64,000 nucleotides of DNA from an uncultured cyanobacterium (GCA_963706595.1 OY970166.1:736001-800000); one strand, 5' to 3'. Shown: positions 3-18,794, numbered from the stretch's first letter. Notes: generated by a model from the sequence alone, not told the origin. Numbers and translations: made by a program.

Positions 3-212
3 TCCCTAGTATTATTAGCGCTGACTTATGGTTTAGGTTACAACCGCAATGCTTCTCTTGCTGCCATTATTTGCACCATAGCAGGAGCAGTATTGCCAGT
101 TTTCGGATTATTAGTACCATTCAGTGGTCTAACTCTCAGTGTTGCAGGCTTGCTTTCAGTTATTTGGTTAGCAGCGCGTCACTGGTATGGCTGGTATAGT
201 TTGCAGCTATAA
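3..212 (+). CDS. 3' end of a hydrophobic (membrane) protein gene, truncated by the window edge
   Basis: Frame 3 is open from the edge and reads SLVLLALTYGLGYNRNASLAAIICTIAGAVLPVFGLLV...WYSLQL, ending at TAA 210-212. Confidence 0.65.
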   Translation, partial: SLVLLALTYGLGYNRNASLAAIICTIAGAVLPVFGLLVPFSGLTLSVAGLLSVIWLAARHWYGWYSLQL

Positions 213-440
213 GATACAGTAAAATAACATAAATTTTTTTGGCTCTAGTAGTCTGTCAAAAAGTAATTGACGGATTAGACCCGCATTTCTCACAAGTACA
301 GAGTTCGCATTCCCCATAATCTTTACCCAGAATATGTTTCGGGCATTTTTGACAAGTTATTTTTTGATGCAGTCTGAAAAACCGCAATCTAGATTTTACA
401 AGGGTTTGAGAAATATCAATCAATAAATTACATCGAAATT

Positions 441-648
441 CAGAAGGCAGAAGTACGAGGGCAGAGGGCAGAAGGAACCCACTCTTAAAAGAGTGGGATT
501 GAAGCAAGGACGCTGTTTTTCCTCTACGCGCTGTGCATCTCGTAAAACATCTTCTTTTAAACTGGGCTTTAAACCCAGAACTAAAGTTTTTAAGAGGGCA
601 GGAAACAGAAACCTTCAGCTCCCGCTGCCTCCTGCCCTCTGCCTTTCT
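441..648. repeat. Nostoc-type dispersed repeat with heptamer-repeat arms and internal hairpins
   Basis: Left arm has GCAGAAG/GCAGAGG repeats and right arm has CTGCCTC/CTGCCCT. Internal palindromes are CCCACTCTT-AA-AAGAGTGGG and CTGGGCTTTAAACCCAG. Confidence 0.6.
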
Positions 649-747
649 TGGTAAGGTTTATGACTTGATGTTAAGATTACTTTTGTATTTTAAAAAAAAA
701 TAGACTTGTCCGAAAGCTGCAAAGCCAAATGATTCATAATTTATCAG

Positions 748-827
748 GTAACTGTTCACACTCCCCCCACCTTTCAACGATAAATCAGGGGTTACGAGCA
801 TTTTGTAGGGGGGGAGTGAATAACTAC
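748..827. repeat. Small inverted-repeat element (REP/MITE-like)
   Basis: Imperfect IR: GTAACTGTTCACACTCCCCCC ... GGGGGGAGTGAATAACTAC. Confidence 0.55.
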
Positions 828-878
828 TTTATAAGTTATTCTTGAGTAGATTTTAGCAGTGTTTAAAGGATTTAGAGA

Positions 879-1505
879 GTGAAAAAAATTAACTTATTTT
901 TCAAAAAAGAGCTTAATCTTATTCAGTCATATTACGAAATTAGAAAAGAATGTAAATTTCAAATTTTTTTTTCGGGGATTCTTTTAATCAATTTTTTTGT
1001 TTTGCAGTATTCAGTACCAATATCTCTGGTATTACTCGGTAGTCTAACAACGTCAAGAGAGCAACTTGCTTTATTTTTACAAAGAGCTTCTATTTCATCT
1101 AAAGATCCTCAACAAGCAGAATTAGATGAGGCTTTAGCTAAGAAAGAATCTGAAATATTATTGGGAAAAATAATATTTATATTTGGAATAATATCTATAT
1201 TATTAGGAGTAATAAATAATACTGTGCGTCCGGCGGAAAATTATGATACTTGTGCTAAATTTAATAGTAAGTTTTCCCACTTTCATCGAGATTTAGACTT
1301 ACAAATTTTAAATAAAGGAGGCTTAGAAAATAAGTCAATCGATACTCCGGAATTCAAGATTATGTGTTTATTTTTGATTGAAAAAAGTGATGAGCTTACC
1401 CATCTAATAAATGAATATAACGAAGCTAGATCCCTTAGTCCACGACAAGCTAATATTCAGGCTTTAAAAAATCAAGAGAATAAAGATGAATTAGAAAGTA
1501 ATTAG
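879..1505 (+). CDS. Hypothetical AT-rich membrane protein
   Basis: 208-aa ORF with a GTG start and 2-3 hydrophobic segments; no recognisable motif. Confidence 0.6.
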   Translation: MKKINLFFKKELNLIQSYYEIRKECKFQIFFSGILLINFFVLQYSVPISLVLLGSLTTSREQLALFLQRASISSKDPQQAELDEALAKKESEILLGKIIFIFGIISILLGVINNTVRPAENYDTCAKFNSKFSHFHRDLDLQILNKGGLENKSIDTPEFKIMCLFLIEKSDELTHLINEYNEARSLSPRQANIQALKNQENKDELESN

Positions 1506-1564
1506 TCTGCTATGGGTTGCAATGGTTAGCTGATAAAGGTAAACGCTTTGATTATAAGGAAGAC

Positions 1565-1646
1565 CCGGAACGGGTAAATTTGACCATAACCTCACCTTGA
1601 CTCTTCCTAGCTTGGGATGCTTCACCTCTAAACTTTGAGTGACTTC
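1565..1646 (-). pseudogene. Short transposase fragment
   Basis: Minus strand reads EVTQSLEVKHPKLGRVKVRLWSNL, resembling cyanobacterial DDE transposase internal segments (recognised from memory). Confidence 0.4.
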
Positions 1647-1692
1647 GGTTTGAGAATTGTGGTGATAAATTCGGGTTAGAGACGCTTCAACA

Positions 1693-1770
1693 TTACCAGA
1701 AGCACTGGCTGCTGTCCAACAGATTCAGGATCAGGACTATCGCGCCGATGCCCTAAGTGCCTTAGCTCTT
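1693..1770 (+). pseudogene. Orphan helical repeat unit from a repeat-containing NTPase gene
   Basis: Translates LPEALAAVQQIQDQDYRADALSALA, a TPR/HEAT-like unit typical of cyanobacterial NB-ARC/NACHT protein tails. No start codon context. Confidence 0.55.
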
Positions 1771-2230
1771 CCTGTGTCTAAAGATGCCAACAACTCTACT
1801 TTTCCTTACTTCATTGTTAGTCCATCTCCCCGGAAGAAAAAAATCGCTCTCCGTATATGATTGCGTTCTCTAAGGTTTTTATTTTGTCATAAGTAGTAAG
1901 TGCAGCTATATTCGTAGCTTTAATCACTCAATAAAAATTCTTCAACTTATTTCTTTGTACACATATACTGGATAAGATATTACAGCAGGAAGCGTAAAAC
2001 GATAAATTTAGCATCTATCAATAGTAGGAGTTAGCATATAAATATATTTCTTAAAAAAAGATTATTTTTCTGTCCTTTGGAGGTTTTAACAGTCAAAGCA
2101 CCTCTTAGAGAAGTATATACTTAGAATCAAGTTGTTGTAACAGAGTTGACTTGGCGACATAAAACACCATCCAAAATGGTGAAACTCACCTTGTCCATAA
2201 TCACAGCGATTTAATATCCAATACTTACGT

Positions 2231-3121
2231 ATGATGAGAAATTTTCACAAAAAATTTGTAGTAGTTGCGATTATTGCAACTTTCGCAAGTGGCTGTAGGT
2301 CTACAGATGAGTACAAAAAATTCGCTGAAGCAGGAAATAATTTTGCTGAAGCTACTAATTCTCTATTGATGGATGCTGAAAAAATTACAATCGATACAAC
2401 ATCTGAGAGAATACTAAGTGTTAGAAAAACTAGCGGAGAATTTCAGCCTAGTGATGAAGCCGCTAAAAAGTTCGTTGATCGCTACACTGAATTATCAGAA
2501 GGAGACAAAAAACGGCTTGAACTTATCAAAGAGCTTCGTAGGCATAACCAATTTTTGCAAGCTTATTTTAATAAACTTATAGAGCTAACTGGTTCTGACT
2601 CTCCTGAGAGAAGTAAAGCCGCAGTGGAGAGTATAGCTAACAATTTACAAAATAGTGGTAGCAAACTTGTAAGCCGAAGTCCCATCAAAATTGATAGGCT
2701 ACCATCGGTAACTAAGATAGTTCTTGACGCTCGGATTCGTGGCGCACTTAGAGAAGAATTAGAAAAGCGCAAATATACTATCTATCAAGAAATAACTACC
2801 CAGGAAAAAGTGCTGAAACACATCAGCGATTCAGTTGAAACAGACATCCAAAGGCTACGAGGGTTCCAAGAATCTCGTTTGGTGTTAAAACCACTCACTC
2901 AGTCAGCAGAAGTTAATGACGATACATGGATAGCAACAAGATATCAGGTTCTGACACGGGAGGCTGAAGTAGTCACAAAAATCAACGATGCAAGTGATAA
3001 ATTAACAAAATTTAAAGAGTTGTTTATTGCTTCCATAGAGGGAGATTTAACCAGTAAACGTCTTGATAATTTCATCCAAGAAACTAATTCATTTTCAGCA
3101 CTTGTTTCCAGCCAACAATAA
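2231..3121 (+). CDS. Predicted all-helical lipoprotein
   Basis: Basic N-terminus, hydrophobic stretch and lipobox ASG-C22; the remainder is amphipathic/coiled-coil-like. Ends 24 bp before the next gene. Confidence 0.85.
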   Translation: MMRNFHKKFVVVAIIATFASGCRSTDEYKKFAEAGNNFAEATNSLLMDAEKITIDTTSERILSVRKTSGEFQPSDEAAKKFVDRYTELSEGDKKRLELIKELRRHNQFLQAYFNKLIELTGSDSPERSKAAVESIANNLQNSGSKLVSRSPIKIDRLPSVTKIVLDARIRGALREELEKRKYTIYQEITTQEKVLKHISDSVETDIQRLRGFQESRLVLKPLTQSAEVNDDTWIATRYQVLTREAEVVTKINDASDKLTKFKELFIASIEGDLTSKRLDNFIQETNSFSALVSSQQ

Positions 3122-3145
3122 TCGTTATTCAGGAAAAATTTAAGT

Positions 3146-6100
3146 ATGCCTATTAATTCTGAAGCTGAAGCTCAAGCAATTTTGGAGAAATTAAGACAAG
3201 TTGATGCGAAACTTAACTCTCCACAAGTTTTATTCACCATTGATAATGAAAGCGATCAACGTAAAAAAGATGCTTTTAACGAAGCGAGAAATAAAATCGT
3301 TGCTCAAATTCGACAACTAGAAGATCAGAGCCTTTCTTTATTATTAGCAAGTCTACAATCAAATGAAGCTTCGTTCCAACAAGGAATAGATAACTTAAAC
3401 CGCGAAATTGAAACAGCTAATAGTATAGCTAGAATCACAGAGGCAATTGATAGAGTCCTGAGTGTTGTCACTGCGATAGTGATTCCCACGCGAGGAATCA
3501 GAAGCCGGAAAATATACGTTTTACTGGTGGGAATCGATAACTATCCCAATCCCAATCATTGCCTCCAAGGTTGTATAAACGACATTACAGCTATAGAAGA
3601 GTATGTAAACGAACGGTTTGACCCGCAAGAATATGAACTGCATTTACTCAAGCTTCAAGATGAACAAGCAACCCGTGAGGCAATTATTAATGGCTTCCGC
3701 AACCATCTTTGTCAAGCTCAAAAAGATGATGTAGTTTTGTTCTACTACAGTGGTCATGGTTCCCAAGAACTAGCACCCAAGGAATTTTGGCACATAGAAC
3801 CAGACCATTTGGATGAAACTTTAGTCTGCTACGACAGTCGTACCGAGAACGGTTGGGATTTAGCAGATAAGGAGTTGGCGAAACTAATTGCAGAAGTCGC
3901 AGAAAAAGAACCACACATAACCATCATTATGGATTGTTGTCACTCTGGTTCTGGTACTAAAGACCCCACGCAAGCAGCCAAAGAACGTCGTTTTCCCGCC
4001 GACAAGCGAGAACGTCCTTTAGATAGCTTTATTTTTACACTGGAAGATTTAGAGAAACTGACAGATTCCTGTGAACGTGATCCCGAAAAACACCCCACAG
4101 GTTGGAAGATCCCCAAAGGTCGTCATGTGCTGCTAGCGGCTTGTCGAGACTACGAAACAGCCAAGGAATACCCAGGTAAGTTTAGGGGTTATTTCTCATA
4201 TTATTTGTTGGATACACTCACCAAGACAAACGGAAAGCTGACATATCGGGATTTATTTGCCCGCACAAATGCTATTGTCCGCAGTGAAAGTAGAGAACAG
4301 TCTCCGCAATTGGAAGTGAATGATCCCCAAGATGGTGATAAGTTCTTTCTTGATGGTGCCATAGCAGAAGTTGAACCATACTTCATTGTGACCCATGACA
4401 AAACCTCTGGCTGGGTGATTGAAGGTGGTGCTGTCCACGGAGTACAACCACCGAAAAATGGTGAAACTACTTTATTTGCATTGTTTAAATTTGATGCTAA
4501 TAATGACGATTTGCGCGACCCCTCAAAGTCTGTAGGTACAGCCAAAGTCACTCAGATATGGCCAACTAAGAGCAAAATCGAGATCGAAGGAGTAGAAAAC
4601 CTAGCTACTGATAGCACTTTTAAAGCAGTTGTCACCAGTTTACCCCTACCACCTTTAAGTGTTTCCTTTGAAGGAGACGAAGCGGGTATAAATTTAGTGC
4701 GTGAACAGCTAAACAAAGCTGGACTCAATGGTAAACCTTCCGCCTATGTCCGCGAGTCCCAAGAAAAGGGCAATGCAGAGTTGCGCCTGTTATGTCGCAA
4801 TAACCAGTATGTAATAGCCCAACCCACAGATGAACGCCCCCTAGTGGCTCAAATTGATGGTTACACCCCAGACAACGCAGAGAAGGCAATTAAACGCTTA
4901 GAACATATTGCCCGATGGAAAACAATTGCTCAACTTGCAAATACTGCGGCGACTCAGATTAAAGCTGCTGATGTGAAGATGGAACTCATCTTTAAAGACG
5001 AGGATTTATCACAATCACAGCAGATGCGTTTGCAGTACAAGTATAAAGACGGTAAGTGGCAACAACCAGAATTTAAACTCAGACTTACCAATACAACTAA
5101 AAAGCCTCTTTACTGTGCTTTAGTCAACCTTTCAGACAGTTTTTCCATTAGCGCCCCATTTTTTGAATCTGGTAGTATCAGGTTGCAAGCAGGAGAATCA
5201 GCTTATGCTTTAGATGGAGAAGAATTAATACTTGAAGTCCCTAATGAATATTGGCAACAGGGAATTACCGAGTACAAAGACATTATTAAGTTGATTGTCA
5301 GCAATGACGAATTTGATGCCAGATTACTAAATCAAGATAAACTAGATGCTCCTCGACCTGTATCTAGAAATATAGAATCTGCAAATCAAAGTAGTCTTGA
5401 GCGTTTAATGGATCGGACACAAAATCGTGAAATCAGAGCTAAAAGTAGTGCAGTTAGTTTTGACGATTGGTATGCAGAGGAAATCACAATTACCACAGTC
5501 CGTCCCTTGGAATCTACCCCAGTTTCCCCAGAACAAGAACAACAATTAGGAGTAGGGGTGAAATTACAACCCCATCCCACCTTAAAGGCAAATGTTCGCC
5601 TCACAACTACACCACAAGTCAGCCGAGATTTGGGTAATAACATTGTGCCTCCCATTCTGCGGGAAGATCCAGAAGTAACTCAACCTTTCCAATTTACTAC
5701 GAGTCGGGGTACAGACCCAGGATTAAGTGTACTGGAACTGAATGACGTTACAGATTACGAAGTTGTCACCTCAGATGCACCTCTGAAGCTGTTAGTTGAT
5801 GCACCCCTAGCAGATAATGAATATCTACTTCCTATAGGTTATGACGGTGAATTTTTCTTACCTCTAGGGCGTGGTCAAACAACTAAAGACGGTAAAACAG
5901 AAATTATCCTCGAAAGATTACCAGCCCCCGTGAGTGAGGGAGAACGCAGTCTGCAAGGTGCTATTCGCATCTTCTTTCAAAAAGTAATCAGCCAGGGTTT
6001 GGGACGGGAATTTAAGTATCCGATATTAGCAGTGGCGGAAATAACAGAGAACCCGAAAAAGAAAGTCATCTATCATCAGGATGTAGCTTATGTCAGGGAG

Positions 6101-6967
6101 CAGGTAAAAAACGCTAAACGAATTGCTCTCTACATCCACGGTATTATCGGCGATACCGAAAGTTTAGTTTCCACCATCAAACAGCCTGTATTGCAGCCAG
6201 ATGGGCAAAAGATTTCCATCAGCGAACTTTACGACCTCGTTCTTACCTTTGATTATGAAAATTTAAATACTTCTATTGAGCAGAATGCCCAACATTTGAA
6301 ACGACGGCTAACAGATGTAGGTTTAGGAGAAAACCATGATAAAGAACTACACATTATTGCTCACTCAATGGGTGGTTTAGTATCTCGTTGGTTTATTGAA
6401 CAGGAAAGTGGGCATAAATTTGTCCAACACCTAATTATGTTGGGTACACCAAACGCCGGTTCTCCTTGGTCTGTGGTGGAAGATTGGGTAAAACTGACTC
6501 TGGGTATTGCACTCAACAGTCTTGCTACAGTTGCTCCCCCGGCAAAAGTAGTAGGTACGTTGCTTGGTACATTAGAAAAAAATATCCGGGTATCTCTAGC
6601 CCAAATGAACCCAGCTTCGGAATTTCTCAATTCTCTGGCCGCTAGTGATGACCCTGGTATTCCTTACTCAATTATTGCTGGTAATACCTCTATTATTGCC
6701 GCAGCATTAGAGGAACAACCACAGAAAAAGTCCAGTATCTTGAAACGGCTACAACAACGTTTATTTAATAAAGTGGTAGACTTACCGTTCTTCGGGGTGC
6801 CAAATGATATAGCTGTGAAGGTGGATAGTATCAAGAGTGTTCCTACAGGGCGATCGCATCCTCCCCACATTCAAGAAGTACCTTGCGACCACATGAGTTA
6901 TTTCCTAAATGAACCTACTGAAGTTGGGTTACAAGCTTTGATTGCAGCTATTAGAAGGCAGAAATAA
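3146..6967 (+). CDS. Caspase-like (peptidase C14) protein with N-terminal helical domain and C-terminal alpha/beta-hydrolase (lipase-like) domain
   Basis: LLVGIDNY, YSGHGSQ and MDCCHSG give the His-Cys dyad. C-terminal YIHGIIG, AHSMGG nucleophile elbow, LGTPNAGS, NDIAV and CDHMSY give a Ser-Asp-His triad. Confidence 0.9.
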   Translation: MPINSEAEAQAILEKLRQVDAKLNSPQVLFTIDNESDQRKKDAFNEARNKIVAQIRQLEDQSLSLLLASLQSNEASFQQGIDNLNREIETANSIARITEAIDRVLSVVTAIVIPTRGIRSRKIYVLLVGIDNYPNPNHCLQGCINDITAIEEYVNERFDPQEYELHLLKLQDEQATREAIINGFRNHLCQAQKDDVVLFYYSGHGSQELAPKEFWHIEPDHLDETLVCYDSRTENGWDLADKELAKLIAEVAEKEPHITIIMDCCHSGSGTKDPTQAAKERRFPADKRERPLDSFIFTLEDLEKLTDSCERDPEKHPTGWKIPKGRHVLLAACRDYETAKEYPGKFRGYFSYYLLDTLTKTNGKLTYRDLFARTNAIVRSESREQSPQLEVNDPQDGDKFFLDGAIAEVEPYFIVTHDKTSGWVIEGGAVHGVQPPKNGETTLFALFKFDANNDDLRDPSKSVGTAKVTQIWPTKSKIEIEGVENLATDSTFKAVVTSLPLPPLSVSFEGDEAGINLVREQLNKAGLNGKPSAYVRESQEKGNAELRLLCRNNQYVIAQPTDERPLVAQIDGYTPDNAEKAIKRLEHIARWKTIAQLANTAATQIKAADVKMELIFKDEDLSQSQQMRLQYKYKDGKWQQPEFKLRLTNTTKKPLYCALVNLSDSFSISAPFFESGSIRLQAGESAYALDGEELILEVPNEYWQQGITEYKDIIKLIVSNDEFDARLLNQDKLDAPRPVSRNIESANQSSLERLMDRTQNREIRAKSSAVSFDDWYAEEITITTVRPLESTPVSPEQEQQLGVGVKLQPHPTLKANVRLTTTPQVSRDLGNNIVPPILREDPEVTQPFQFTTSRGTDPGLSVLELNDVTDYEVVTSDAPLKLLVDAPLADNEYLLPIGYDGEFFLPLGRGQTTKDGKTEIILERLPAPVSEGERSLQGAIRIFFQKVISQGLGREFKYPILAVAEITENPKKKVIYHQDVAYVREQVKNAKRIALYIHGIIGDTESLVSTIKQPVLQPDGQKISISELYDLVLTFDYENLNTSIEQNAQHLKRRLTDVGLGENHDKELHIIAHSMGGLVSRWFIEQESGHKFVQHLIMLGTPNAGSPWSVVEDWVKLTLGIALNSLATVAPPAKVVGTLLGTLEKNIRVSLAQMNPASEFLNSLAASDDPGIPYSIIAGNTSIIAAALEEQPQKKSSILKRLQQRLFNKVVDLPFFGVPNDIAVKVDSIKSVPTGRSHPPHIQEVPCDHMSYFLNEPTEVGLQALIAAIRRQK

Positions 6968-6978
6968 AAAATACCCAA

Positions 6979-7018
6979 AAGGCAAAAGTAGGCATTCTAA
7001 ATGTCTATCTTTTGCCTT
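6979..7018 (+). terminator. Intergenic stem-loop (terminator or mRNA-processing hairpin)
   Basis: AAGGCAAAAG-TAGGCAT-TCTAA-ATGTCTA-T-CTTTTGCCTT directly after the stop codon; no strong U tract. Confidence 0.45.
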
Positions 7019-7056
7019 ACTCATTTTTCCATTTATTAGGCTGAGGGAATACGTAA

Positions 7057-10000
7057 ATGTCTAAACATGATTTTCATCGTAATTTTGCTATTATTATCGG
7101 TATTAATAATTATCAAAATAGTATTAGAGAGTTAAAAAGCGCAGTTCCAGATGCTCTCAAATTAGCTGAAATTATTCAAAAGCAACATGAAAATCTAAAA
7201 CCGCAATATCAGGGAGAAAATAAGTATGAAGTGCAATTATTATTGAATCAACGTGCTAGTCTTAGCCAGCTAAAACAATTAATTGCAGATTTCAAACAAG
7301 GAGAAATAACGCTTGACAAGAAAAAAGTTACAATTACAGAAAGCGATCGCCTCCTCTTCTATTTTGCTGGACATGGGATTGCTTTAGATGCTCTAGAAAA
7401 TCAAGAAGGGCCTGTAGGTTATCTGATTCCTCAAGATGCTATATCCGGTGATAGTAGTACCTACTTGCCGATGCAGGAATTGCATGATGCTTTGAACGCA
7501 CTTCCTTGTAGGCATATGTTAGCAATTCTTGATTGCTGCTTTGCCGGAGCTTTCCGTTGGGCAAGCGTGAAGCGGGAAGTTGTACGCAAAGTTCAGATAT
7601 ATAAAGAACGCTACGACAGATTTATAAGCGATCGCGCTTGGCAAGTTATTACTTCCGCATCTGACGACCAAAAAGCTTTAGATTCCTTGGTGGGATCGCG
7701 CGGGAGAGTCACAGACGGAAATGAAGTTCATTCTCCCTTTGCCCAAGCTCTGTTTGACGCTTTGCTGGGGAAAGGTGCAGATTCAAATCAAGATGGTATG
7801 GTCACTGCAACTGAGCTTTACTCATATTTGCGCGATCAAGTAGAAATCGCCTCAGAAAATTACTACCAGCGACAAACTCCTAGTTTATGTCCACTCAGGA
7901 AACATGATAAAGGGGAATTTATCTTTTTGTTGCCTGATTTTGACCGAGATAAATTGGAAGATGCGCCACCACTAAACGTAAAAAATAATCCGTATCGAGG
8001 ATTATCTTCCTATGATGAAAAAGACAGTAATTTGTTTTTTGGTAGAGAAGATCAAATTCAAAAGCTTTACCAGAAAGTAGTTGATAACAAACAACAATTA
8101 ACATTAGTCTTGGGTGCTTCGGGAACGGGTAAATCTAGTTTGGTGAAAGCTGGACTTATTCCTAAACTCAGGAAGGATGACAAAACTTGGCGTATCTTGC
8201 CGCCTTTTCGACCAGGGGAGTCTCCTTTGAAGTCATTGAATAACGTACTAGAATCGGTCAAGCAGCCTTTAATCCAAGCAGGAACATCTTCCCATTTATT
8301 CACCCCAGCCGAAGAAAGCTTGGGAAATTGGTTCAAGAATAATCCTCAAGCAAAGCTACTGGTGATTATCGATCAGTTTGAAGAATTGATAACTTTATCT
8401 AAGAGTGAAGAAGCAGAGAAATTTCAGATATTTATTAAAAATATAGTTGCTAAATACCCTAACAACATCCATGTAGTTATTACCTTGCGACTCGATTTTG
8501 AAGCGCAGTTTCAAACCTCGGTACTCAAAGACTTTTGGAATGATGATGCTCGGTTTGTTGTTTCACCAATGAGCCAAAATGAATTCCGGGAAGCAATTGA
8601 GAAACCTGCATCACAAAAAGTTATATATTTCGACCCTCCCAGCTTGGTAGACGAACTAATTAACGAAGTCGTACAAATGCCGGGAGCTTTACCTTTGCTT
8701 TCTTTCACCCTGAGTGAATTGTACTTGAAGTATTTAGGCGATCGCACTAGGGATAACCGGGCTTTAACCAAGAAAGATTATGAAGAGTTGGGAAGGGTGG
8801 TTGGTTCTTTAACCAAGCGTGCCAACCAGGAATATGAGAAGTTAGTTGCAGAAGACAGTGCTTATCAAGATACAGTGCGGCGAGTAATGTTACGGATGAT
8901 TTCATTGCAGGGTGGCGAGTTAGCACGGCGACAAGTTCCTAAATCGGAACTTATATATACTGACGAGAAGGAAACTGAGCGGGTGAACACAGTCATCAAA
9001 AGCTTTTCTGAAGCCCGCTTAATCATAGAAGGTTCCAATCCTCAAAGTGAACCTTATGTGGAGCCTGCTCATGATGCTTTAGTAATGGGATGGGGCAGGA
9101 TTAGGAACTGGCTGAATGAGAGACAAGCAAAGGTTAAGACAGTAAGTCAATGGCATCAACTCAAAACATGGTTTAACGTAAGGTTGCTTGAAGGAGATAG
9201 CAATAAAGTCACTCGCCCTGAAGCAGAACAAGCATTAAAGGTCAATCTCTCTTTACAAAGGGAGGTGACTAATGCTGCTAATAATTGGAGTAGGAAAAGA
9301 GAAAGTGACAGGGATAAACAGGCTGTTGGTTTTCTCTGGGATAGAGATCCCCGCTTACCCCAATTGGAACAAATTCAGCAATCTGATGATAACTGGTTTA
9401 ACAAAACTGAGACTCAGTTTGTTGAGCATAGTATCACTCAGAAACGACGGAACATTCGCAACTTTTGGATCGCAGTCGTTCTTGCATTCGCTGGAGTAAC
9501 CAGTTTTGCCCTTTACTTTTGGTGGCAACTTCAACAGAGCCAACTGCGGGAGAAAATTACTAGATCGGAAAATTTACTAGCGACAGATCCTTTAGCAAGT
9601 TTAGTAATAGCAATAGATGCTATTGGGCGGAATCGCAATACTCCTATTGTTAACGTGAATATATTACCTGAAGTCCGATACAGTTTACTCAGTGCAGTAC
9701 AAACTTCTAGAGAACGTAATCGATTCTCTGACAATGTTCAGGGAAAAGCCATTGCCTTAAGTCCAGATGGTGAAAAAATTGCTAGTGCAGATGGGAATGG
9801 TAATGTTTACTTATGGGATTTGCAAGGCAAACAGCAATGGAAAAGAAATGTAACAACACCTCTTGGGAATATAAAATTTTTAGAGTTTAGTCCTGATGGA
9901 AAGATTTTGATTGCTACAAGTGATCAGTATAACTCTAGTGCTGAAAATAATACACCCAATCCAGTACAATTTTGGGACTTGCAAGGCAACCAAATTCAAC

Positions 10001-11805
10001 CACTTGGCGCTTCTGGTACTGCAATTATTACTGCTACGTTTAGTCCCAATGGTAGGTTGATTGTTGGTGGTGGTAGTGATGGTGCTATTTATTGGCGGGA
10101 CTTACAAGGCGATTCAAGTGTGAAATCTCGGCAAGTCAGTAGTGATAGGAGTGCAATTCATGCTGTTGCCTTCAGTCCTGATGGAAGAACTATTGTGAGT
10201 GCAGATGAAAAAGGTTGTATTTATCTATGGCAATTGCAGGGTAATCAATTAAACAAAGTAGCTTGTGATGATTCTCTAAAAAACATTCGATCTATTGCTT
10301 TGAACAAAAACGGAAACCGGATTCTCATTAATCTTGTTCCAGACTATTCTGAATCTGGCTTCAGTTATGAGAGCTTTGCTATTCTCTGGAATTTAGATAA
10401 TCAGGAGCAGCAATGGAAGCGTTCATTCCTGAAAGTTGCGAATCCGGGTTTTTCATCAAGAGTCTTATTTGCTGCCTTTAGTCCTGACAGCAGCACTATA
10501 GTCACTGGTGGCGAAGATGGCAGCGTCCGTCTTTGGGATAGTGAATGTAAGGAAATCAGTCAGCCTTTATTAGGTCATAGCAGCAACGTCGAATCTGTAG
10601 CTTTTAGCTCTGACGGAAAGAGGATTATCAGTAATAGCTCGGATGGCAGCATTCGTCTGTGGGATGCAGAGCAGAACTTATCGGAACAACGCATTAGTAG
10701 GTATGGAGAAAGTCGTTCTACCATTCTTAGCCCCGATGGCCAGAAAGTAGCTATCGGCGGCGAAATAATTAATGATCAAGGAAAATCTGAATTAAAAGGA
10801 TCAGTTACATTATTGGACATTATTGCAGGTAACCGACAAATTTTTGCAGGCACGAATATGCAAGAGCAAAGTAGTGGTCAAGACCAAAATGGTGAGCCTC
10901 TTGCTGTTAGCTCTAAGGGTTATGTTCTTGTTAAAACCGTTGATAACCTTGATGACGGCAAATCTCGCCTAATTTTGTGGCATCCTGGGGCTACTTCAGA
11001 AAAGCAAACCATCGGCACTCCTGAAACTAACTTTGGACACATTGCTGCTATTAGTCCTGATAGTCAAATGATTGCCAGTACCGTGGATGAGGGCGGCGTA
11101 ACTGATGCCATTGGTCTATGGGACATTCAGGGTAATCCAATTGGACAGCCAATGAAAAATGATGAAAACTTTTCTGTACAATCTATTGCCTTTAGCCCTG
11201 ATGGTCAGCAGATAGTTAGTGGTAGCAGTAACTATGCTTTAAATGGTGCTTCAAGTCAATCTTCTGTATGCTTATTGCATTTAAAAGTAGATGGTTTAGA
11301 GAAAAAACCTTGCCAATTGGTTACTGGTGAGTTAAATAAAGTGGCTTTTAGCCCCGATAGCAAAACTGTTGCTATTGGACAAAGCGATGGCGGGCTATAT
11401 TTGTGGAATTTGCAAACTAATGTAATAGGTAAACGCTTTGGTGGAAATGGACAGCCTGTTTTATCTATTGCCTTTAGCCCCGACAGCAAAATCCTTGCTA
11501 GTGGTAGTAGAGACGGTAGTATGCGTTTGTGGAACTTAAATGGAAATCCAATCGGCAGAGCCTTTCAAAGTTACACAAGTCCAAATAAAGCTGTTTCCTC
11601 CATAGCTTTTAGTCAGGATGGCAAAACCGTGATTGTTGCTTACATAGATGGAAGTGTGAGGTTTTGGCAGGCTGACTTAGAACTTTTACTCCAAGTCGCG
11701 TGCAACAGATTGCGTGACCATTCTATCTTGAAAAATCCAAGTAATGAAGAAGAGAGAGGAGCTAAAAAGACTTGTGAGACATATGTTTGGAATACAAAAA
11801 TTTAA
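7057..11805 (+). CDS. Caspase (C14) - STAND NTPase (nSTAND1-like) - transmembrane helix - WD40 repeat protein
   Basis: FAGHG and LDCCFAG; NPYRGL, Walker A GASGTGKSS, Walker B VIIDQFEE, PGALPLL, EPAHDAL; hydrophobic FWIAVVLAFAGVTSFALYFWW at 9463-9525; many FSPDG...LWD repeats. Confidence 0.92.
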   Translation: MSKHDFHRNFAIIIGINNYQNSIRELKSAVPDALKLAEIIQKQHENLKPQYQGENKYEVQLLLNQRASLSQLKQLIADFKQGEITLDKKKVTITESDRLLFYFAGHGIALDALENQEGPVGYLIPQDAISGDSSTYLPMQELHDALNALPCRHMLAILDCCFAGAFRWASVKREVVRKVQIYKERYDRFISDRAWQVITSASDDQKALDSLVGSRGRVTDGNEVHSPFAQALFDALLGKGADSNQDGMVTATELYSYLRDQVEIASENYYQRQTPSLCPLRKHDKGEFIFLLPDFDRDKLEDAPPLNVKNNPYRGLSSYDEKDSNLFFGREDQIQKLYQKVVDNKQQLTLVLGASGTGKSSLVKAGLIPKLRKDDKTWRILPPFRPGESPLKSLNNVLESVKQPLIQAGTSSHLFTPAEESLGNWFKNNPQAKLLVIIDQFEELITLSKSEEAEKFQIFIKNIVAKYPNNIHVVITLRLDFEAQFQTSVLKDFWNDDARFVVSPMSQNEFREAIEKPASQKVIYFDPPSLVDELINEVVQMPGALPLLSFTLSELYLKYLGDRTRDNRALTKKDYEELGRVVGSLTKRANQEYEKLVAEDSAYQDTVRRVMLRMISLQGGELARRQVPKSELIYTDEKETERVNTVIKSFSEARLIIEGSNPQSEPYVEPAHDALVMGWGRIRNWLNERQAKVKTVSQWHQLKTWFNVRLLEGDSNKVTRPEAEQALKVNLSLQREVTNAANNWSRKRESDRDKQAVGFLWDRDPRLPQLEQIQQSDDNWFNKTETQFVEHSITQKRRNIRNFWIAVVLAFAGVTSFALYFWWQLQQSQLREKITRSENLLATDPLASLVIAIDAIGRNRNTPIVNVNILPEVRYSLLSAVQTSRERNRFSDNVQGKAIALSPDGEKIASADGNGNVYLWDLQGKQQWKRNVTTPLGNIKFLEFSPDGKILIATSDQYNSSAENNTPNPVQFWDLQGNQIQPLGASGTAIITATFSPNGRLIVGGGSDGAIYWRDLQGDSSVKSRQVSSDRSAIHAVAFSPDGRTIVSADEKGCIYLWQLQGNQLNKVACDDSLKNIRSIALNKNGNRILINLVPDYSESGFSYESFAILWNLDNQEQQWKRSFLKVANPGFSSRVLFAAFSPDSSTIVTGGEDGSVRLWDSECKEISQPLLGHSSNVESVAFSSDGKRIISNSSDGSIRLWDAEQNLSEQRISRYGESRSTILSPDGQKVAIGGEIINDQGKSELKGSVTLLDIIAGNRQIFAGTNMQEQSSGQDQNGEPLAVSSKGYVLVKTVDNLDDGKSRLILWHPGATSEKQTIGTPETNFGHIAAISPDSQMIASTVDEGGVTDAIGLWDIQGNPIGQPMKNDENFSVQSIAFSPDGQQIVSGSSNYALNGASSQSSVCLLHLKVDGLEKKPCQLVTGELNKVAFSPDSKTVAIGQSDGGLYLWNLQTNVIGKRFGGNGQPVLSIAFSPDSKILASGSRDGSMRLWNLNGNPIGRAFQSYTSPNKAVSSIAFSQDGKTVIVAYIDGSVRFWQADLELLLQVACNRLRDHSILKNPSNEEERGAKKTCETYVWNTKI

Positions 11806-11947
11806 TAAAATAGGAAAATCAGTATGAAAAAAAATTCTGCTGCTAATTACCGTAAATGCAGACAAATGGTTTTGAAGAGAAGCAAACCCTAGGCTTTGAA
11901 AGTTATGAATTTCTTGCAACTAAAACTCTCTCAATAATGCTTTCTCC

Positions 11948-14900
11948 ATGTCCAAATCAAAGTACGATTTTCACCGCAACTTTGCAATAATTATTGGTAT
12001 TAATAACTACTTAAATGGCATTCCAGAGCTAGAGACACCAGTTGCTGACGCTGAAAAATTCGCCAAAATTCTCCAAGAAAACTATCAATATGAGGTGCAG
12101 ATATTACTAAATGAAAAAGCTACACTATTACAGTTAACTTCTCTATTAGCAGACCTTAAACAAAAAACACTACATTTACCTGAGAAAACATTACAGATAG
12201 AACAAAGTGACCGTTTAATATTTTACTTTGCCGGACATGGAATAGTCCCCGCAGATGGGCTAGAAAACAGGGATAATCTGGCAGGCTATCTTGTCCCCCA
12301 GGATGCCAGAGGAGATATTCTTCTGCAAAAGCAAATAGAAATTAACAAAATTCTCCTGCCCATGCAAGACTTGCATGATGCCCTTGTAGAACTACCTTGC
12401 CGTCATTTACTAGTTATACTAGATTGCTGTTTTGCTGGGGCATTTCGTTCGAGTTTATATCGAGAAATTCTCCCGGCGCGAAAAGTTTATAAACAAAGGT
12501 ACGATCGCTTTATTAGAGATAGAGCATGGCAAGCGATCGCATCTGCGGCTCATGACCAAAAGGCGATCGATTATCTCGGTTGTTTCGGACAGAGGGGAAG
12601 CACAGGAAAACACTCGCCTTTTGCAGAAGCCTTGTTTGATGGTTTAGTGGGTGCTGCCGACACAACGCTACGAGAAGGTGATGGTATTATCACAGCAACA
12701 GAACTTTACTGCTATTTACGCGATCGAGTTGAAGAACTTACCGACGAACTTGATAAACGCCAAACTCCCGGCTTGTTTCCCCTGAAAAAGCATGACAAAG
12801 GCGAGTATATATTCTTACTACCAAATTTTGACCAAAACAAGTTAGAAGATGCACCAGCACTCAACGAAGAAAACAACCCTTATCGGGGTTTAAAAAGCTA
12901 TGAAGAACAGCATTCTCAGTTGTTTTTTGGCAGAGATGAACTAATCAAACAACTATATGAACGTGTTCTTCACCCTAAAAACCCACTAACTGTAGTTTTA
13001 GGCGTTTCCGGTTCTGGCAAGTCTAGTTTAGTCAAAGCGGGGTTAATCCCTTATATAAAGGCTAACCATAACGAAGATTGGTACATTATACCTACATTCC
13101 GTCCTGGTGAATCTCCCTTCGCCGCACTGGCTGAGGTAATAGCAATCAATACTGAGGTTAGTGAAAGTAAAATAGAGGTAATTAAGTCTCTCAGCGAGAC
13201 GCTTATACAAGCACCAAAGCAATTCATTGAAATTGTAGCCAATGGCAGACAAATCCCTGCAAATGCAAAGCTTTTATTGGTGATTGACCAATTTGAAGAA
13301 CTAATTACCATCTGCAAGCAACAAGAGCGAGAGCAGTTCTTAAATTTTCTGGCACAAGTATTAGAGGTTAATGCTCAAAAGTTGCACATAATCATCACCT
13401 TGCGCTCTGACTTTGAACCGCGTTTTTTAGATTCTGCACTCAAACCCTATTGGAGTGGCGATCGCTTTCCAGTACGCGCCATGAGGTCTGATGAATTACG
13501 GCAGGCCATTGAAAGACCAGCTAATGAAAAAATGTTGGATTTCAACCCACCAAATCTAGTTGACCTGCTCATTGACGAAGTAGGGCAAATGCCCGGCTCT
13601 CTATCACTATTATCTTTTACTTTAAGTGAACTTTATACTAAATGTATTGAGCGGGAAAGTAGAACTTTAACTCAGGCAGATTATCAGGAGTTAGGCGGAG
13701 TTGCAGGTTCCTTAACACATCGAGCAACGGAAATATACAACAAACTGGACAAAGCCCAGCAAATCACAATGCAACGGGTGATGTTGCGGATGGTGACAAT
13801 TGAAGGCGGGGAGTCAGCAAGGCGAAGAGTGCCTTTATTTGAGTTGATATATATAAGTAATGCAGAAAATACGCGAGTAGAGGAAATCCGTCAACTGCTG
13901 GATAAATCGCGTTTGATTGTGGGTGGACAGGAACCAGGGGGTGAACCCTATGTAGAACCAGCCCATGATGCCTTGGTACGAGGGTGGAGTAAGTTACAGG
14001 AGTGGAAAAATGAGGAGCAGGAAAACTTGTTACTGCAACAGCGTTTAACTCCTGCGGCTAATGATTGGGACAGAAATAATCGACCTATTGGCTTATTGTT
14101 ACCTGATGGCGATCGCCTCAATCAGTTGGAGAAAATTCAGGCATTACCTGATAACTGGTTGAATCAGCAAGAGGTAGACTTTGTTCAAGCAAGCATTAAT
14201 TATAGAAATATTCAACAAAGGCTCTCTAGAGAACAACAAACAAGAACAGAACTACTACGGAAAGTAAATAGAGTAGAAGATTTACTTACTTCTCAACCGT
14301 TGAACGGTTTAATCTTAGCAATTCAAGCCATAGGGGAAAATTTAGAAAAAATTCCCCATACAATTTTAATGGCTGCTCAGTCTAGTTTACATAAAATGGT
14401 TTCTCGCTCCAGAGAGTGTAATTTTTTTTGTAGTGGAAGCTTTTGTGTAGATTTCAGTCCTGATGGAGAAATGATTGTTAGTGGTGGCGGAGAAGGCGTT
14501 TTCCAACTATGGGATCTAAAAGGAAATTTAATCAGTGAATCTTTATCTCACAATGGCTCTAGCATTAGTACAGTAGTTTTCAGCCCTGATGGTCATAATA
14601 TTGCTAGTGGTGGTGGCAGTGGATTTTACTTATGGGCTATAGACAGTACAAATAAATCCTTTCATCTTGTAACATCAAATTCTGATTTCTCTATTAAATT
14701 TATAACTTTTAGCCCTTCGGGAAACTACATTATTAGTGGTAGTAATGATGAGAAACTGCAAGTTTGGGATAGTCAAGGAAATTTACTTGCTCATCAATTT
14801 TCTGCTGAGAACGGATGGTCAAGAGATAATCGAGAGGCTATTAATGTAGCTTTTGGTTCTTCAGACAACGATTTTGTTAATGCTTGTGGTGAAATCTTAA

Positions 14901-16621
14901 AGCTTTGGGATACTTTTGTTAACCGAAAAAGGAACAGCATCCACATACTTTGTAAAGTAAATTCTGTAGCCTTGAGTCCAGATAATCAAATAATAGCTAT
15001 TGCTTCTAATAATAGTCATATTCGTCTATGGAATATAGAAGAGCAATCTCTGGGCGAACCTTTTAGCGGATACGAATCTTCATATCCAATCCAATCAGTG
15101 AAATTTAGCCCTAATGGAGAATACATTGTTAGCGGGAGTTTTGACCAAACAGTACGTTTATGGGACTTAAACGGAAAGCTAATTAATACGCCTTTTATTG
15201 GTCACGATCAATTTGTCTATTCTGTAGCTTTTAGTCCTGATGGTACAGGTATTGTCAGTGGCGGTTTAGATGGCATCAGAATTTGGGATACTCATGGCTA
15301 CAAAGCTACCCAAGTTATTAAAGATCACCAAGGAGAGGTGAATGTGGCAGTTTTTAGCCCAGACGGAAATTATATATTTAGTGGTGGTGATGACGGTAAT
15401 TTAAGACTTTGGGACATCAAGGGGAATCTTATTGACAAAACCTCCATAAATAGTCAGGATGCTATTACTTGCCTCTCTATAAGTCTTGATGGAAAATATA
15501 TAGTCAGTGGCAGCTATGAAGGTGATTTAAGACTTTGGAGCATTCAAAATCAACGTCTACATCAGCTCTTCATTGTTCATCAAGATGGTATAAATGCTGT
15601 AGCTTTTAGTCTCAGTGACAACTTAATTTCTAGTGGTGGTGAGTCTGGAATTGTAAAACTTTGGAATTTGGAAGGTAATTCTGTTGGTGAACCCTTCATT
15701 GAACATCAGTCACGGATTACTTCTATCGCATTTAGTCCCGATGGAGCAATGCTGGCCAGTGGAAGTTCTGATGGTAGTCTTGGACTATGGAACATTAATG
15801 GTCAATCTATCATTCAACCCTCTAGAGTTGATGGTTGTTGGGTTGATTGTCTAGCCTTTAGTCCAGATGGAAAATACATCATAAGTGGTATCAATAATGA
15901 TCCTCTGAGTGGTCGTGGTTTTGGTGGTGTACTGAAACTTTGGGATTTATAAGGTAACATTATCGGTAATCCCTTCACTGGTCATGAAGACAGTGTTACT
16001 TGCGTAGCTTTTAGTCCTGATGGGACGCTAATAGTTAGTAGCAGTGTTGATGGCACTGTTAGACTTTGGGATCAACAAGGGAATGCTGTTGGTTCTCCCT
16101 TTATTGGTCACAAATTTCGTGTTACATCTGTAGATTTTGATCCAACTGGAAAGCAGGTTGTCAGTAGCGGTGTGGATGGCACAGTGCGTTTGTGGCCAGT
16201 TGATTGGGTATATTGGTTGCAAGTAGGTTGCGATCGCCTCCGCTACCATTCTGTTCTCAAGAATCCTCAAACTGAAGTAGAGAGACAAGCCTGGGAAACT
16301 TGTCAAAATTATGTCTGGGAACCAGAAAAAGGTACTCAAAAGTTATATGAGCAAGCACTACAAAGGATTAAGGACAAAGAAAACTTTCCCGCAGCAGAAG
16401 AAAAAAATTTTTCAGAAGCGATCTCAATCTTGAATCTAGTGATTCAGTTTAATCCAGCTCATGCTGATGCTTACTACCATCGGGGCAAGTGCTATGCTGA
16501 TTTTCAGAATAAGCACATAACAACAGTAGATTTTAACACGGCTGCGACTCTATATCGGCAGCAAGGAAAAACTGAAACTGAGGAGTACCAGGAGGTTATG
16601 AAATTCCTCAATCAGCTTTAA
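11948..16621 (+). pseudogene. Second caspase - STAND NTPase - WD40 - TPR protein, interrupted by one in-frame stop
   Basis: FAGHG, LDCCFAG, GVSGSGKSS and VIDQFEE are present. TAA at 15950-15952 (WDL*GN) is followed in the same frame by two more WD40 repeats and the 16172-16621 ORF with a TPR-like NPAHADAYYHRG motif. Confidence 0.88.
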
Positions 16622-16629
16622 TTCTAAAT

Positions 16630-17083
16630 CCCACATTCCGCACCCTCGACTGTCACACATCAAGAAAAGAGCCTCCAAGTAGTACATGGGAACTAAAGCA
16701 AATTAAAAGTAAAGGGGCTTAATCAGAATTAGTCTTACAAAACCAAACAACTGCCAATTAGCAAAGCTTTCAGGTAAAAACGAGGATTGCAGGCGGAATA
16801 TGAAAATCTAGAAAAAGTTTAGAAAAATTAATTGTTAACCAAAATAGAAATGAGAAAATTACTACAGAATTCATGGAGAATCCTGTAGTGATGTTGAATC
16901 TAAAAGAAATCCAAATCCAAAATATAGAAAAGTTTAGGCATAGTAGCAGGAATGGTAGATGCCATTGGATTGGTAGAAATAATTAATGATTTAATAGGTG
17001 AAGAAAAAGGAGAAAAGGTCAGCCCTGGTCATGCTGTTAAAGCCATGATTTTAAATGGCTTAGGATTTGTATCTCAACCATTA
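16630..17083 (+). mobile_element. IS1634-family left end and truncated transposase start
   Basis: Near-identical to 55996-56449; begins with TIR CCCACATTCCGCACCCTCGACTGTCACA and is cut by an IS630 end. Confidence 0.85.
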
Positions 17084-17344
17084 CAGCGTTTCCGGCTGTT
17101 ATGAGGTACAGTAGCAGCAATTAGCAAACCAGTTTCTTAAATGTTGAGGATTTATTAAGTCAAGTGCAACTGAAATTATTCGATCTACCATTTCTGTTGT
17201 AGTTGGTGAAAACATCCGTAAGAAAGATTTAAGTTGTTACCACCATAACTCAATGGGGTTGAAATCTGGTGAGTATGGTGATAAACATATAACTGAAGCC
17301 CCGACAGATTCAATCATTGGCACAATTGAATCTAGTTTATGTGC
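17082..17344 (-). mobile_element. IS630-family 3' remnant with terminal repeat
   Basis: End TACAGCGTTTCC...GAGGTACA; minus strand reads LSPYSPDFNPIELWW*QLKSFLR with an internal stop. Confidence 0.8.
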
Positions 17345-17357
17345 GGATAAGTTATCC

Positions 17358-17710
17358 TAAACCCCACCAGAGTCGCTACTGGTTAACCCCCCCCTGTAGA
17401 TGAAGAGTTTGACGCAAAAGTGGATGATATTACTGGTTTATATATCACTGGGATTGAACGTCATCAAAGCGGAGAGCGGACAATATCGATTGATGAAATG
17501 ACCGGGATTCAAGCTACTGAGCGTCTAGAAAAAGACTTACCAATCAGACCAGGTAAAGTTGAAAGAAGAGAGTTTGAGTATATCCGTCATGGTACGCAAA
17601 GTTTAATCGCTAGTTTTGATATCGCAACTGGTCAAATTATTGAACCAAGTTGCGGAGATTCCAGAACCGAAGAGGATTTCGTTCAACATATTCGTCGAGT
17701 TATTGAAAGG
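17358..17710 (+). mobile_element. Internal fragment of a second IS630-family transposase
   Basis: KPHQSRYWL followed by SIDEMTGIQATER and EFEYIRHGTQSLIA. Confidence 0.8.
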
Positions 17711-17914
17711 GTCTTTCCTGGGGTCGGGGATTGTTCACGATGCACTGCCCCAACTGCCGCATCGTCGTGACTTAAATTTGCTGGTAGTAGGCATTGCAAC
17801 AATGTTAGGATGTCGAACATGGGCTGTGTGTGGCTTTCGAGTTGTTGTTTTGGAAGACTATAACTCTACTACATCAACCCTCTTTTTATACTCTTTTTTT
17901 GGCTACAGTATTGT
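17711..17914 (-). mobile_element. IS4-family-like left end plus degraded transposase start
   Basis: Minus strand begins (A)CAATACTGTAGCCAA at 17914 and reaches ATG 17820 encoding MFDILTLLQCLLP. The first 62 bp recur inverted at 39853-39914. Confidence 0.6.
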
Positions 17915-18794
17915 ACATAGTTATAAATTTCCCCGCCGACTTACTTACTCTTTTCTTGAATGTTGAAAGAGGGTTAATTAGAGCTAAATTTAGGATTTGC
18001 TTTAAAGCTAGCCACATAAAAACTGGGATAGTTGTACTGTATCGACTAAATAGTCTCAATGGTTCCTGAATTAGACGATATAACCACTCGACCCCTAAAT
18101 GACGTATCCAATAGGGCGCTCTTTTGTGACTTTCTGCAAAGACAGGAAATGCTCCCCCTAAACCAATCATCACAGCCTGAATTTTGTCTTTGTGTTGGTT
18201 CATCCAGTACTCTTGTTTTGGACATCCTAGAGCAACTAAAACTATTCCAGCACCACTATCATGAATTTTTTTTATAATAGCTTCATCCTCTGCCCATGTG
18301 AGTGGACGGAATGGTAAAGGCTCCATTCCAGCAATTTTCAAATTCGGAAAATCACACTCTAAGTTCTTTCTCATCTTCGCTAGAATTACTTCATCAGAAC
18401 CCAAAAAGAAAAGATGAATGTCTCTGAGTGGAGCTAATTTACACAAAGATAACAGAATATCCATACCAGCAACGCGGTTTTGAGTACCTGCACCCATTAG
18501 TTTCAACATCCAAACCAGCGGCATCCCGTCAGGAGTAACAATATCTGCACTTTTTAAAACAGCAGAAAACTCTGGATGCCAATAAGCTTCTACGAGCATA
18601 TGAGTATTAGCTACGCAAATAACTTTGCTAACTTTATTCATCGCCCATTCTAATATGAAATTTATTTGTACTTCAAAGTGTAAAGCAGTAACAGAAGAGC
18701 CAATTATATTTAGTTTTGCAGCTATTCTTGAAGCTTCAAATTCCGAAGTTAGCTTTAAAGATTGAAGTTGAATTTGGTTATTTGTAGTTAGCAT
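17886..18794 (-). CDS. WecB/TagA/CpsF-family glycosyltransferase
   Basis: TPDGMP, RVAGMD, LGCPKQE, GLGGAF and EWLYRLIQEP.RL motifs. Confidence 0.93.
   Translation of the reverse strand: MLTTNNQIQLQSLKLTSEFEASRIAAKLNIIGSSVTALHFEVQINFILEWAMNKVSKVICVANTHMLVEAYWHPEFSAVLKSADIVTPDGMPLVWMLKLMGAGTQNRVAGMDILLSLCKLAPLRDIHLFFLGSDEVILAKMRKNLECDFPNLKIAGMEPLPFRPLTWAEDEAIIKKIHDSGAGIVLVALGCPKQEYWMNQHKDKIQAVMIGLGGAFPVFAESHKRAPYWIRHLGVEWLYRLIQEPLRLFSRYSTTIPVFMWLALKQILNLALINPLSTFKKRVSKSAGKFITMYNTVAKKRV

Follow-up and report, generated by a model that had tools for sequence, protein, structure and literature searches.

A composite caspase locus of Nostocales couples a protease-hydrolase module, probably for sensor-gated cell death, to an unnamed pair of a lipoprotein and a small helical protein

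In the LcCaspase-LcHydrolase system, the caspase cleaves the hydrolase at two Arg-Gly sites, yielding fragments that are lethal to E. coli (Evans et al. 2025 preprint, PMC12642450), and activation of one caspase-like protease by another, in a protease-to-caspase cascade, was described by Steens et al. (10.1101/2023.06.23.546230). STAND targets are found in the cytoplasm and in the periplasm (PMC10907252), and multi-caspase operons have been noted in cyanobacteria (PMC3501461, PMC8283722). Here, we analyzed a locus of four genes within a window of 64,000 nucleotides from an uncultured cyanobacterium (GCA_963706595.1 OY970166.1:736001-800000). The locus is a composite of two modules: module A, consisting of the lipoprotein encoded by gene 1 (LIPO) and of a small helical domain encoded at the start of gene 2 (HEL), and module B, consisting of the caspase-hydrolase of gene 2 and the caspase-nSTAND1-WD40 sensors of genes 3 and 4. 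The named relatives of its proteins are Nostocales, and we interpret it as a composite locus of this group for sensor-gated cell death, probably directed against invaders.

A previous, sequence-only reading had proposed a four-gene caspase system for immunity or cell death, and its inventory of parts was borne out. All four genes lie on the + strand with gaps of 24, 89 and 142 bp; Peptidase_C14 domains with intact His-Cys dyads are present in genes 2, 3 and 4; genes 3 and 4 each carry nSTAND1 and WD40; the hydrolase of gene 2 has a complete Ser1074-Asp1221-His1249 triad; and gene 1 encodes a lipoprotein with an all-helical model, whose lipobox cysteine is found family-wide. The premature TAA in gene 4 is real in the sequence, and the helical partner surmised for the lipoprotein was corroborated by gene pairing and complex prediction. 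Two features had been missed: the first 116 residues of gene 2 belong to a separate family, usually encoded by its own gene, and a transmembrane helix is present in gene 3 (residues ~802-825) and absent from gene 4. The idea of a single four-gene system stood only in part. A caspase-STAND gene was present in the mapped stretch of 14 of the 17 loci in which HEL is fused to the caspase-hydrolase, yet there is no fixed four-gene system: the two modules occur mostly apart, sensor genes number 0 to 3 per locus, and gene 4 is broken here. No named counterpart was found for module A, which is the part of the locus worth pursuing; module B works like published caspase/hydrolase death modules.

HEL comprises ~115 aa and is modelled as an all-helical hairpin with an amphipathic last helix; no signal peptide was found in HEL sequences. 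Its homology to free-standing proteins is not circular, because a hidden Markov model (HMM) built from stand-alone HELs only (nine sequences) finds the gene 2 domain, with an E-value of 8.5e-12 (Z=1e6). The Pfam, PADLOC and NCBIfam libraries gave no family match for HEL; one HEL relative carries PF28175, a newer family that may already cover it. Foldseek returned nothing at E 0.001 for either HEL or LIPO, and their best folds (Z 8.2, root-mean-square deviation (rmsd) 3.7 and 68 aligned for HEL; Z 11.4, a designed protein, rmsd 5.0 and 209 aligned for LIPO) are within the helical-bundle background.

Judged from sequence, LIPO is a widespread unnamed family: the gene 1 profile search yielded 631 clusters at 50% identity, no Pfam or NCBIfam family matched at the curated cut-off, and the best PADLOC E-value was 0.0098. 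The lipobox cysteine is aligned in 134/136 family members, preceded by Gly in 102, Ala in 15 and Ser in 15, and a Tat-like motif occurs in none of the 134 members with this cysteine. With its signal peptide and lipobox cysteine, LIPO has the hallmarks of a lipoprotein and lipidation is predicted. LIPO was present in 91 of the 389 family genomes and in 0/10 other genomes of the same genus, and three LIPO queries gave no plasmid match. The ESM Atlas returned hypothetical clusters only, commonest in Myxococcota, Pseudomonadota or Bacteroidota, a weak result given that the recognition value of the LIPO query was below the mark. Neither LIPO nor 12 HEL members matched the EACC1 family.

Gene neighbourhoods were mapped at 95 loci (the window, two further loci, 12 regions and 80 of the 106 LIPO genome matches), with flanks of ~5 kb on the upstream side and ~15 kb on the downstream side. 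HEL was found in the stretch at 86 of the 88 loci with a LIPO open reading frame (ORF) of at least 250 aa, nearly always as the next gene, and was stand-alone in 71 and fused in 15; orphan LIPO is rare (2/88). The order LIPO then HEL was also observed in 13/13 metagenome loci with a GC content from 0.33 to 0.70, obtained by scanning with a narrow alignment built from 8 distant members; two of these loci nearly duplicate each other, and some appear to be cyanobacterial. In five loci (L057, L058, L059, L066, L116), one LIPO gene is followed by two divergent HEL genes. At two metagenome loci (L124:921-1721, L125:1347-2147) HEL is fused to a different domain of ~150 aa, with two cysteines and no Pfam match, which is a second, independent HEL fusion. 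A membrane-protein-like ORF with no Pfam match (L120:7003-8067) stands directly after LIPO and HEL on a GC-rich contig.

Complex prediction for LIPO and HEL gave a score of 0.85 (median of three runs) versus 0.00 for the best of 3 controls. This mark was reached by 116/157 solved pairs and 2/215 mismatched ones, counts that hold only roughly, as our own alignments were used. Contact agreement between the runs was at least 97% and the predicted local distance difference test (pLDDT) value of the partners at least 86. Within HEL, conservation is higher at the predicted interface than elsewhere (0.47 vs 0.36, p 0.0003), and the C-terminal HEL helix is hydrophobic (mean Kyte-Doolittle value up to 1.37). 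Conservation of LIPO residues Tyr38, Ser58, Trp233 and Arg237 away from the predicted interface suggests a further job for this protein. According to the model, LIPO very probably binds HEL; because LIPO has an export signal and HEL has none, the two should start across the inner membrane from each other.

Table 1. Coordinates of the genes, domains and candidate release site of the locus within the window.
Feature	Position	Strand	Description
Gene 1 (LIPO)	2231-3121	+	296 aa; all-helical lipoprotein, Sec-type signal, lipobox Cys22
Gene 2	3146-6967	+	1273 aa; HEL + caspase + alpha/beta-hydrolase
HEL domain	3146-3493	+	Gene 2 residues 1-116; HMM match residues 9-112
Arg116-Gly117 junction HEL/caspase	3491-3496	+	Candidate release site; cleavage putative
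Gene 2 Peptidase C14	3518-4321	+	Residues 125-392; His204/Cys265; PF00656 E 1.3e-22
Gene 2 middle and pre-hydrolase regions	4346-6100	+	No Pfam family at E 0.05
Gene 2 alpha/beta-hydrolase	6128-6967	+	DUF7379, lipase-like; PF24096 E 1.7e-16; Pfam match residues 995-1163
Gene 3	7057-11805	+	1582 aa; caspase - nSTAND1 - transmembrane helix - WD40
Gene 4	11948-16621	+	Caspase - nSTAND1 - WD40 - TPR-like tail, without transmembrane helix; TAA 15950-15952

With regard to module B, the hydrolase of gene 2 is DUF7379/PGAP1-like, and PDB sequence matches of the protein were to the caspase family only. The PADLOC check suggested earlier gave the generic 'caspase' model only (gene 2 residues 122-729, E 1.7e-43), and otherwise repeat or weak matches. 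His204, Cys265, Asp1221 and His1249 are each present in 60/60 homologues, and the nucleophile motif HSMGG (Ser1074) was read from the sequence. PF00656 scored 81, 58 and 65 bits in genes 2, 3 and 4 against a cut-off of 21.4. The ratio of non-synonymous to synonymous substitution rates (dN/dS) was 0.125 for the gene 2 caspase and 0.19 for the hydrolase, both pairwise medians of comparisons that are not independent. HEL-less caspase-hydrolases matched in 166/389 family genomes, and the same genome holds a second caspase-hydrolase (G000:C1:2297314-2300829, L134), ~46% identical, which has no HEL, LIPO or caspase-STAND neighbour. Other N-terminal cargo on longer caspase-hydrolases was considered and rejected, the 20 long ones fetched beginning at the caspase.

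In genes 3 and 4, the motifs FAGHG and LDCCF and Walker A/B are intact, and nSTAND1 (PF20703) was detected with E-values of 4e-95 and 9e-108, together with WD40. Both genes have the NLR-like nSTAND1 layout as read from sequence, i.e., an N-terminal effector, a STAND NTPase and C-terminal repeats, gene 4 being truncated by the TAA. The hydrophobic segment of gene 3 starts at residue 802, after a basic stretch, and a similar segment is present in 16 of 22 other caspase-STAND proteins; the sensor domain of gene 3 is predicted to be periplasmic and that of gene 4 cytoplasmic. Identity between gene 3 and four syntenic orthologues amounts to 76-83% for the caspase-STAND half and 22-25% for the WD40 half. 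The sensors behave like receptors, because WD40 halves are swapped while caspase-STAND halves are kept. TPR matches in gene 4 were below the cut-off, and NCBIfam gave one marginal 24-bit match of a short domain in the gene 4 repeats and otherwise nothing at the cut-off for the four genes.

The gene 4 ORF up to the TAA covers 11948-15952 (1334 aa, the stop being codon 1335), and the frame stays open beyond this single TAA to 16621. An intact 1558-aa orthologue in locus L111 is 93-94% identical in both halves, and synonymous and non-synonymous codon differences were 99/84 before the stop and 14/12 after it. The high identity to an intact orthologue and the alike substitution patterns on either side suggest either that the stop arose recently or that it reflects a sequencing error. 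Contigs of related strains extend across its position. A gene for a DUF1400 alpha/beta-hydrolase stands between the caspase-hydrolase and the first sensor gene in L111 (5013-6758), with similar ORFs in L001, L005 and L091; the unfused locus L181 also contains an ORF that resembles it.

As for how the parts are joined, 42 HEL-less caspase-hydrolase loci, chosen non-randomly as close relatives or long open frames, contained a caspase-STAND gene in 31 cases, and in two genomes the caspase-hydrolase and caspase-STAND form a single ORF of 2973 aa and 3057 aa (L171 from 2924; L172). This association points to a link between sensor and zymogen, and we consider it likely that STAND caspases act on the caspase-hydrolase.

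LIPO or a LIPO fragment lies upstream in all 17 fused loci. A FastTree tree of 80 LIPO proteins grouped the 14 fused rows into one clade with a support of 100, and in a tree of 60 caspase-hydrolases 16 fused rows fell in a clade of 20, nested among unfused relatives; both trees were midpoint-rooted and their clades were read without a formal clade test. The pattern fits one fusion followed by several losses. In G820, a genome of the same genus with 91% DNA identity, the match starts two bases past the Arg116 codon and LIPO and HEL are absent, having been lost together. The caspase genes of G820 are flanked by large co-oriented ORFs (717, 1100 and 1261 aa; L133:13090-19900 and 203-3988). A separate LIPO clade showed the unfused, co-oriented order caspase-hydrolase > caspase-STAND > LIPO > HEL in 4/4 loci, which had been fetched on account of match tables that placed the genes close together; some unfused loci have extra ORFs in between, and L069 has no sensor in between. 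Unfused LIPO lies at most 16 kb from a caspase-hydrolase in at least 9 genomes, according to match tables that list 150 of the 235 caspase-hydrolase matches. The association between modules A and B is repeated but optional.

At the border of the two modules, Arg116 is present in 23/23 fused proteins, followed by Gly in 19, Glu in 3 and Arg in 1, and the two residues ahead of it are variable. Stand-alone HELs end at about the Arg116 column, mostly in a hydrophobic residue. Within gene 2, Arg854 and Arg281 are present in 60/60 homologues, with Gly next to Arg854 in 51, and Arg827 and Arg934 in 57/60 and 56/60. Arg827, Arg854(-Gly) and Arg934, upstream of the hydrolase, are candidate processing sites. 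Regarding release of HEL by a cut at Arg116, we see the chances as evenly balanced. An Arg preference of orthocaspases has been argued in silico (PMC8283722).

Building on STAND biology, we propose a sequence in which a signal would first be bound by a WD40 sensor, which would lie in the periplasm for gene 3 and in the cytoplasm for gene 4, whereupon nSTAND1 would oligomerise and turn on its caspase. The STAND caspases and the gene 2 caspase would then cut gene 2 past its conserved arginines, which would activate the lipase-like hydrolase and release HEL at about its stand-alone length. The inner membrane would separate LIPO and HEL until it is breached by the hydrolase; signal-less HEL could then reach exported LIPO, and the predicted heterodimer might act on the envelope as an accessory lysis step. 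That this whole chain operates, with sensor-activated STAND caspases processing the caspase-hydrolase, the hydrolase damaging the inner membrane and freed HEL binding LIPO as an envelope step, is our preferred reading, to which we give slightly less than an even chance. Damage to the envelope by the LIPO-HEL dimer itself is a tentative and rather unlikely part of it. Equally doubtful is the broader notion that LIPO-HEL is a two-part envelope effector, not described before and spread across phyla, with its halves in different compartments. In this view, Nostocales caspase systems would have recruited it at least twice, once via a cleavable fusion; proteolysis triggered by the sensor, together with damage to the inner membrane, would then license an envelope-disrupting or neighbour-protecting heterodimer in a multicellular filament.

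Several results weigh against this reading. Most copies of each module occur without the other, which speaks against an obligate joint system: neither LIPO nor HEL was in the stretch at any of the 42 HEL-less caspase-hydrolase loci, and a caspase or hydrolase match was seen in only 8/71 stand-alone LIPO-HEL loci (in the stretch first examined) and in 0/13 metagenome LIPO-HEL loci, whose contigs are short. Close relatives lost module A, and four unfused caspase-hydrolases nest within the fused clade, so that module B can do without module A. Gene 4 is broken in this genome. Fused HEL evolves fast (dN/dS 0.59, again a pairwise median of comparisons that are not independent), and the predicted interface of LIPO is no more conserved than its rest (0.43 vs 0.39, p 0.30). 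In the model, LIPO is contacted by the amphipathic last helix of HEL, an arrangement as compatible with neutralisation as with attack. Shared descent from a single fusion may explain the conservation of Arg116, and Thr109, Ala110 and Arg121 are also found in 16/16 of the fused genes aligned. Furthermore, bacterial caspases need not cut after Arg, the Runella gasdermin being cut after Leu (10.1101/2021.06.07.447441) and EACC1 having a putative Asp cut site (PMC12642450).

The main rival leaves the caspase cascade unchanged and takes HEL as a membrane-active toxin and LIPO as an immunity lipoprotein that shields neighbouring filament cells from the HEL of a dying cell. Cells of filaments share a periplasm, and a signal-less small protein with a cognate lipoprotein is the layout of periplasm-acting effector-immunity pairs in type VI secretion. 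LIPO-HEL has this layout together with a confident predicted complex in which the hydrophobic C-terminal helix of HEL lies against LIPO, HEL evolves fast, and the pair is patchy among the family genomes. Immunity genes are often orphans or tandem copies, whereas here orphan LIPO is rare and the duplicated partner is HEL, in five loci; the conserved LIPO residues off the interface point to a further job and no delivery route is evident, and we judge this explanation unlikely. The scarcity of joint loci lends itself to another account, in which the envelope role of module A has nothing to do with death, the fusion arose by accident at an insertion hot spot and was tolerated, and death or defence is served by module B alone. 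Fusion loss on more than one occasion and the insertion-sequence fragments flanking the locus agree with it, as does the occurrence of most copies of each module on their own. However, LIPO or a fragment of it lies upstream at all 17 fused loci, a second LIPO clade is co-oriented behind the same caspase genes, and fused HEL is still under purifying selection (dN/dS below 1); we regard this account as improbable.

The fusions of HEL in L124 and L125 bear on a further alternative, namely that HEL is an uncut address tag that docks its fused cargo, here the caspase-hydrolase, on an envelope lipoprotein, resembling the effector-associated-domain principle of PMC8195603. However, HEL is free of cargo in 71 of the 86 HEL-bearing loci, the second caspase-linked LIPO lineage is unfused, and cargo and lipoprotein would be on opposite sides of the inner membrane, which makes such tagging a little less probable still. 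Finally, the caspases might serve regulated signalling or development (stress, differentiation) without killing, with the hydrolase making a lipid signal. That PADLOC matched no system besides the generic caspase model would agree with this, and so would the fact that the part of PMC8283722 available shows no defence role for cyanobacterial orthocaspases. However, conflict systems typically display patchy presence, sensor swapping and pseudogenes, as observed here, and the closest tested analogue, LcCaspase-LcHydrolase, kills; we consider a role in signalling very improbable.

The locus offers candidate substrates and sites (Arg116, Arg854) for the question of a death programme run by the caspase homologues of filamentous cyanobacteria, and its intact, unfused, single-ORF and module-loss versions are available as natural controls. 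In addition, it brings to light a large family of lipoproteins that has a near-constant small partner. The joining of a protease-triggered lipase system, a type known to kill cells under infection, to the LIPO-HEL pair is a hint that programmed death in bacteria may include a step at the cell envelope, and if the pair acts at the envelope, a trans-membrane step would be added to bacterial protease-effector systems.

Promoter and terminator scans of the locus gave values equal or close to those of shuffled sequence. In a relative, a contig from an RNA library covers genes 1-2, although contigs cannot show transcription. Insertion-sequence fragments lie directly past gene 4 (16630-17913, including a DDE_3 piece at 17420-17770), and 16630-17083 is repeated elsewhere in the same genome at 100% identity. 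Upstream, an ORF at 879-1505 (208 aa) has hydrophobic segments and no Pfam, PADLOC or NCBIfam match. On the minus strand, 17886-21132 encodes a WecG-family glycosyltransferase and an ORF that we take to be chain-length/tyrosine-kinase-like; this is the start of a polysaccharide cluster unrelated to the locus.

Among described systems, small helical proteins that work with a lipoprotein or a larger helical partner at the envelope include effector-immunity lipoprotein pairs, two-part spanins and two-part pore toxins of the ClyA family. Unlike these, LIPO and HEL showed no sequence or significant fold match to them, fold comparison with ClyA-family alpha-pore toxins, ESCRT-III-like proteins and WXG100 giving scores at the helical-bundle background, and HEL has neither a signal peptide nor an N-terminal membrane anchor. 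In the literature searched, including PMC8866957 and PMC7159879, no description of the LIPO-HEL pair or of the HEL fusion was found in the main texts, and supplements to papers of the Aravind group may list such neighbourhoods; a search for DUF7379 returned 0 papers.

Bacterial gasdermins resemble the locus in that a caspase fused to WD40 or NACHT trims a C-terminal extension off a membrane-acting protein (Johnson et al., 10.1101/2021.06.07.447441). Unlike gasdermins, HEL and LIPO are helical and free HEL occurs naturally without an inhibitory tail; neither the four genes nor the upstream ORF had a gasdermin match in Pfam, PADLOC or NCBIfam. Cyanobacterial orthocaspases/metacaspases with NACHT-WD40 share the domain architecture of genes 3 and 4 (PMC3501461, PMC8283722), and in the parts of these papers available no caspase-DUF7379 protein, lipoprotein or HEL is described. 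The Avs/STAND-protease systems (MBL, Pepco, EACC1) have in common with the locus a STAND NTPase, an N-terminal protease, a repeat sensor and an adjacent effector gene (PMC12642450). HEL, being all-helical, differs from the beta-strand pore formers of these systems, and gene 3 differs by its transmembrane helix; no Avs model was among the PADLOC 2.0.0 matches at E 0.01, in a library of 2023 that precedes later types, and the caspases scored 37.7, 64 and 57.8 bits against the cut-off of 140 for caspase_w_EACC1 (NF047832).

In SAVED-CHAT/PCaspase, as proposed here, a sensor-fused caspase-like protease activates a second C14 caspase with an abortive outcome (10.1101/2023.06.23.546230). That system is triggered by cA3 through SAVED and initiated by CHAT, whereas the candidate initiators here are C14-nSTAND1-WD40 proteins and neither SAVED nor CHAT was among the best 25 Pfam rows per protein for the four genes. 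In the present locus, HEL and a hydrolase are attached to the second caspase, and none of the four genes codes for a sigma factor, an inhibitor or a kinase. As judged by analogy, LcCaspase-LcHydrolase is the closest working analogue of module B: a C14-type caspase stands beside an alpha/beta-hydrolase with a catalytic triad, associated proteases are fused to beta-transducin (WD40) repeats, and conserved Arg-Gly activation sites there correspond to predicted Arg sites here (PMC12642450). LcHydrolase is a stand-alone protein of ~33 kDa cut at Arg73 and Arg117, 44 residues apart, and the part of the preprint available describes no lipoprotein or helical partner. By contrast, the gene 2 hydrolase, compared by description only, forms the C-terminal part of a 1273-aa protein that also contains a caspase, and Arg827, Arg854 and Arg934, spaced 27 and 80 residues and with only Arg854 before Gly, precede the Pfam hydrolase domain. 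In its proposed mode of action, module B parallels known protease-effector modules while sharing some, rather than all, of the features by which membership in them is defined.

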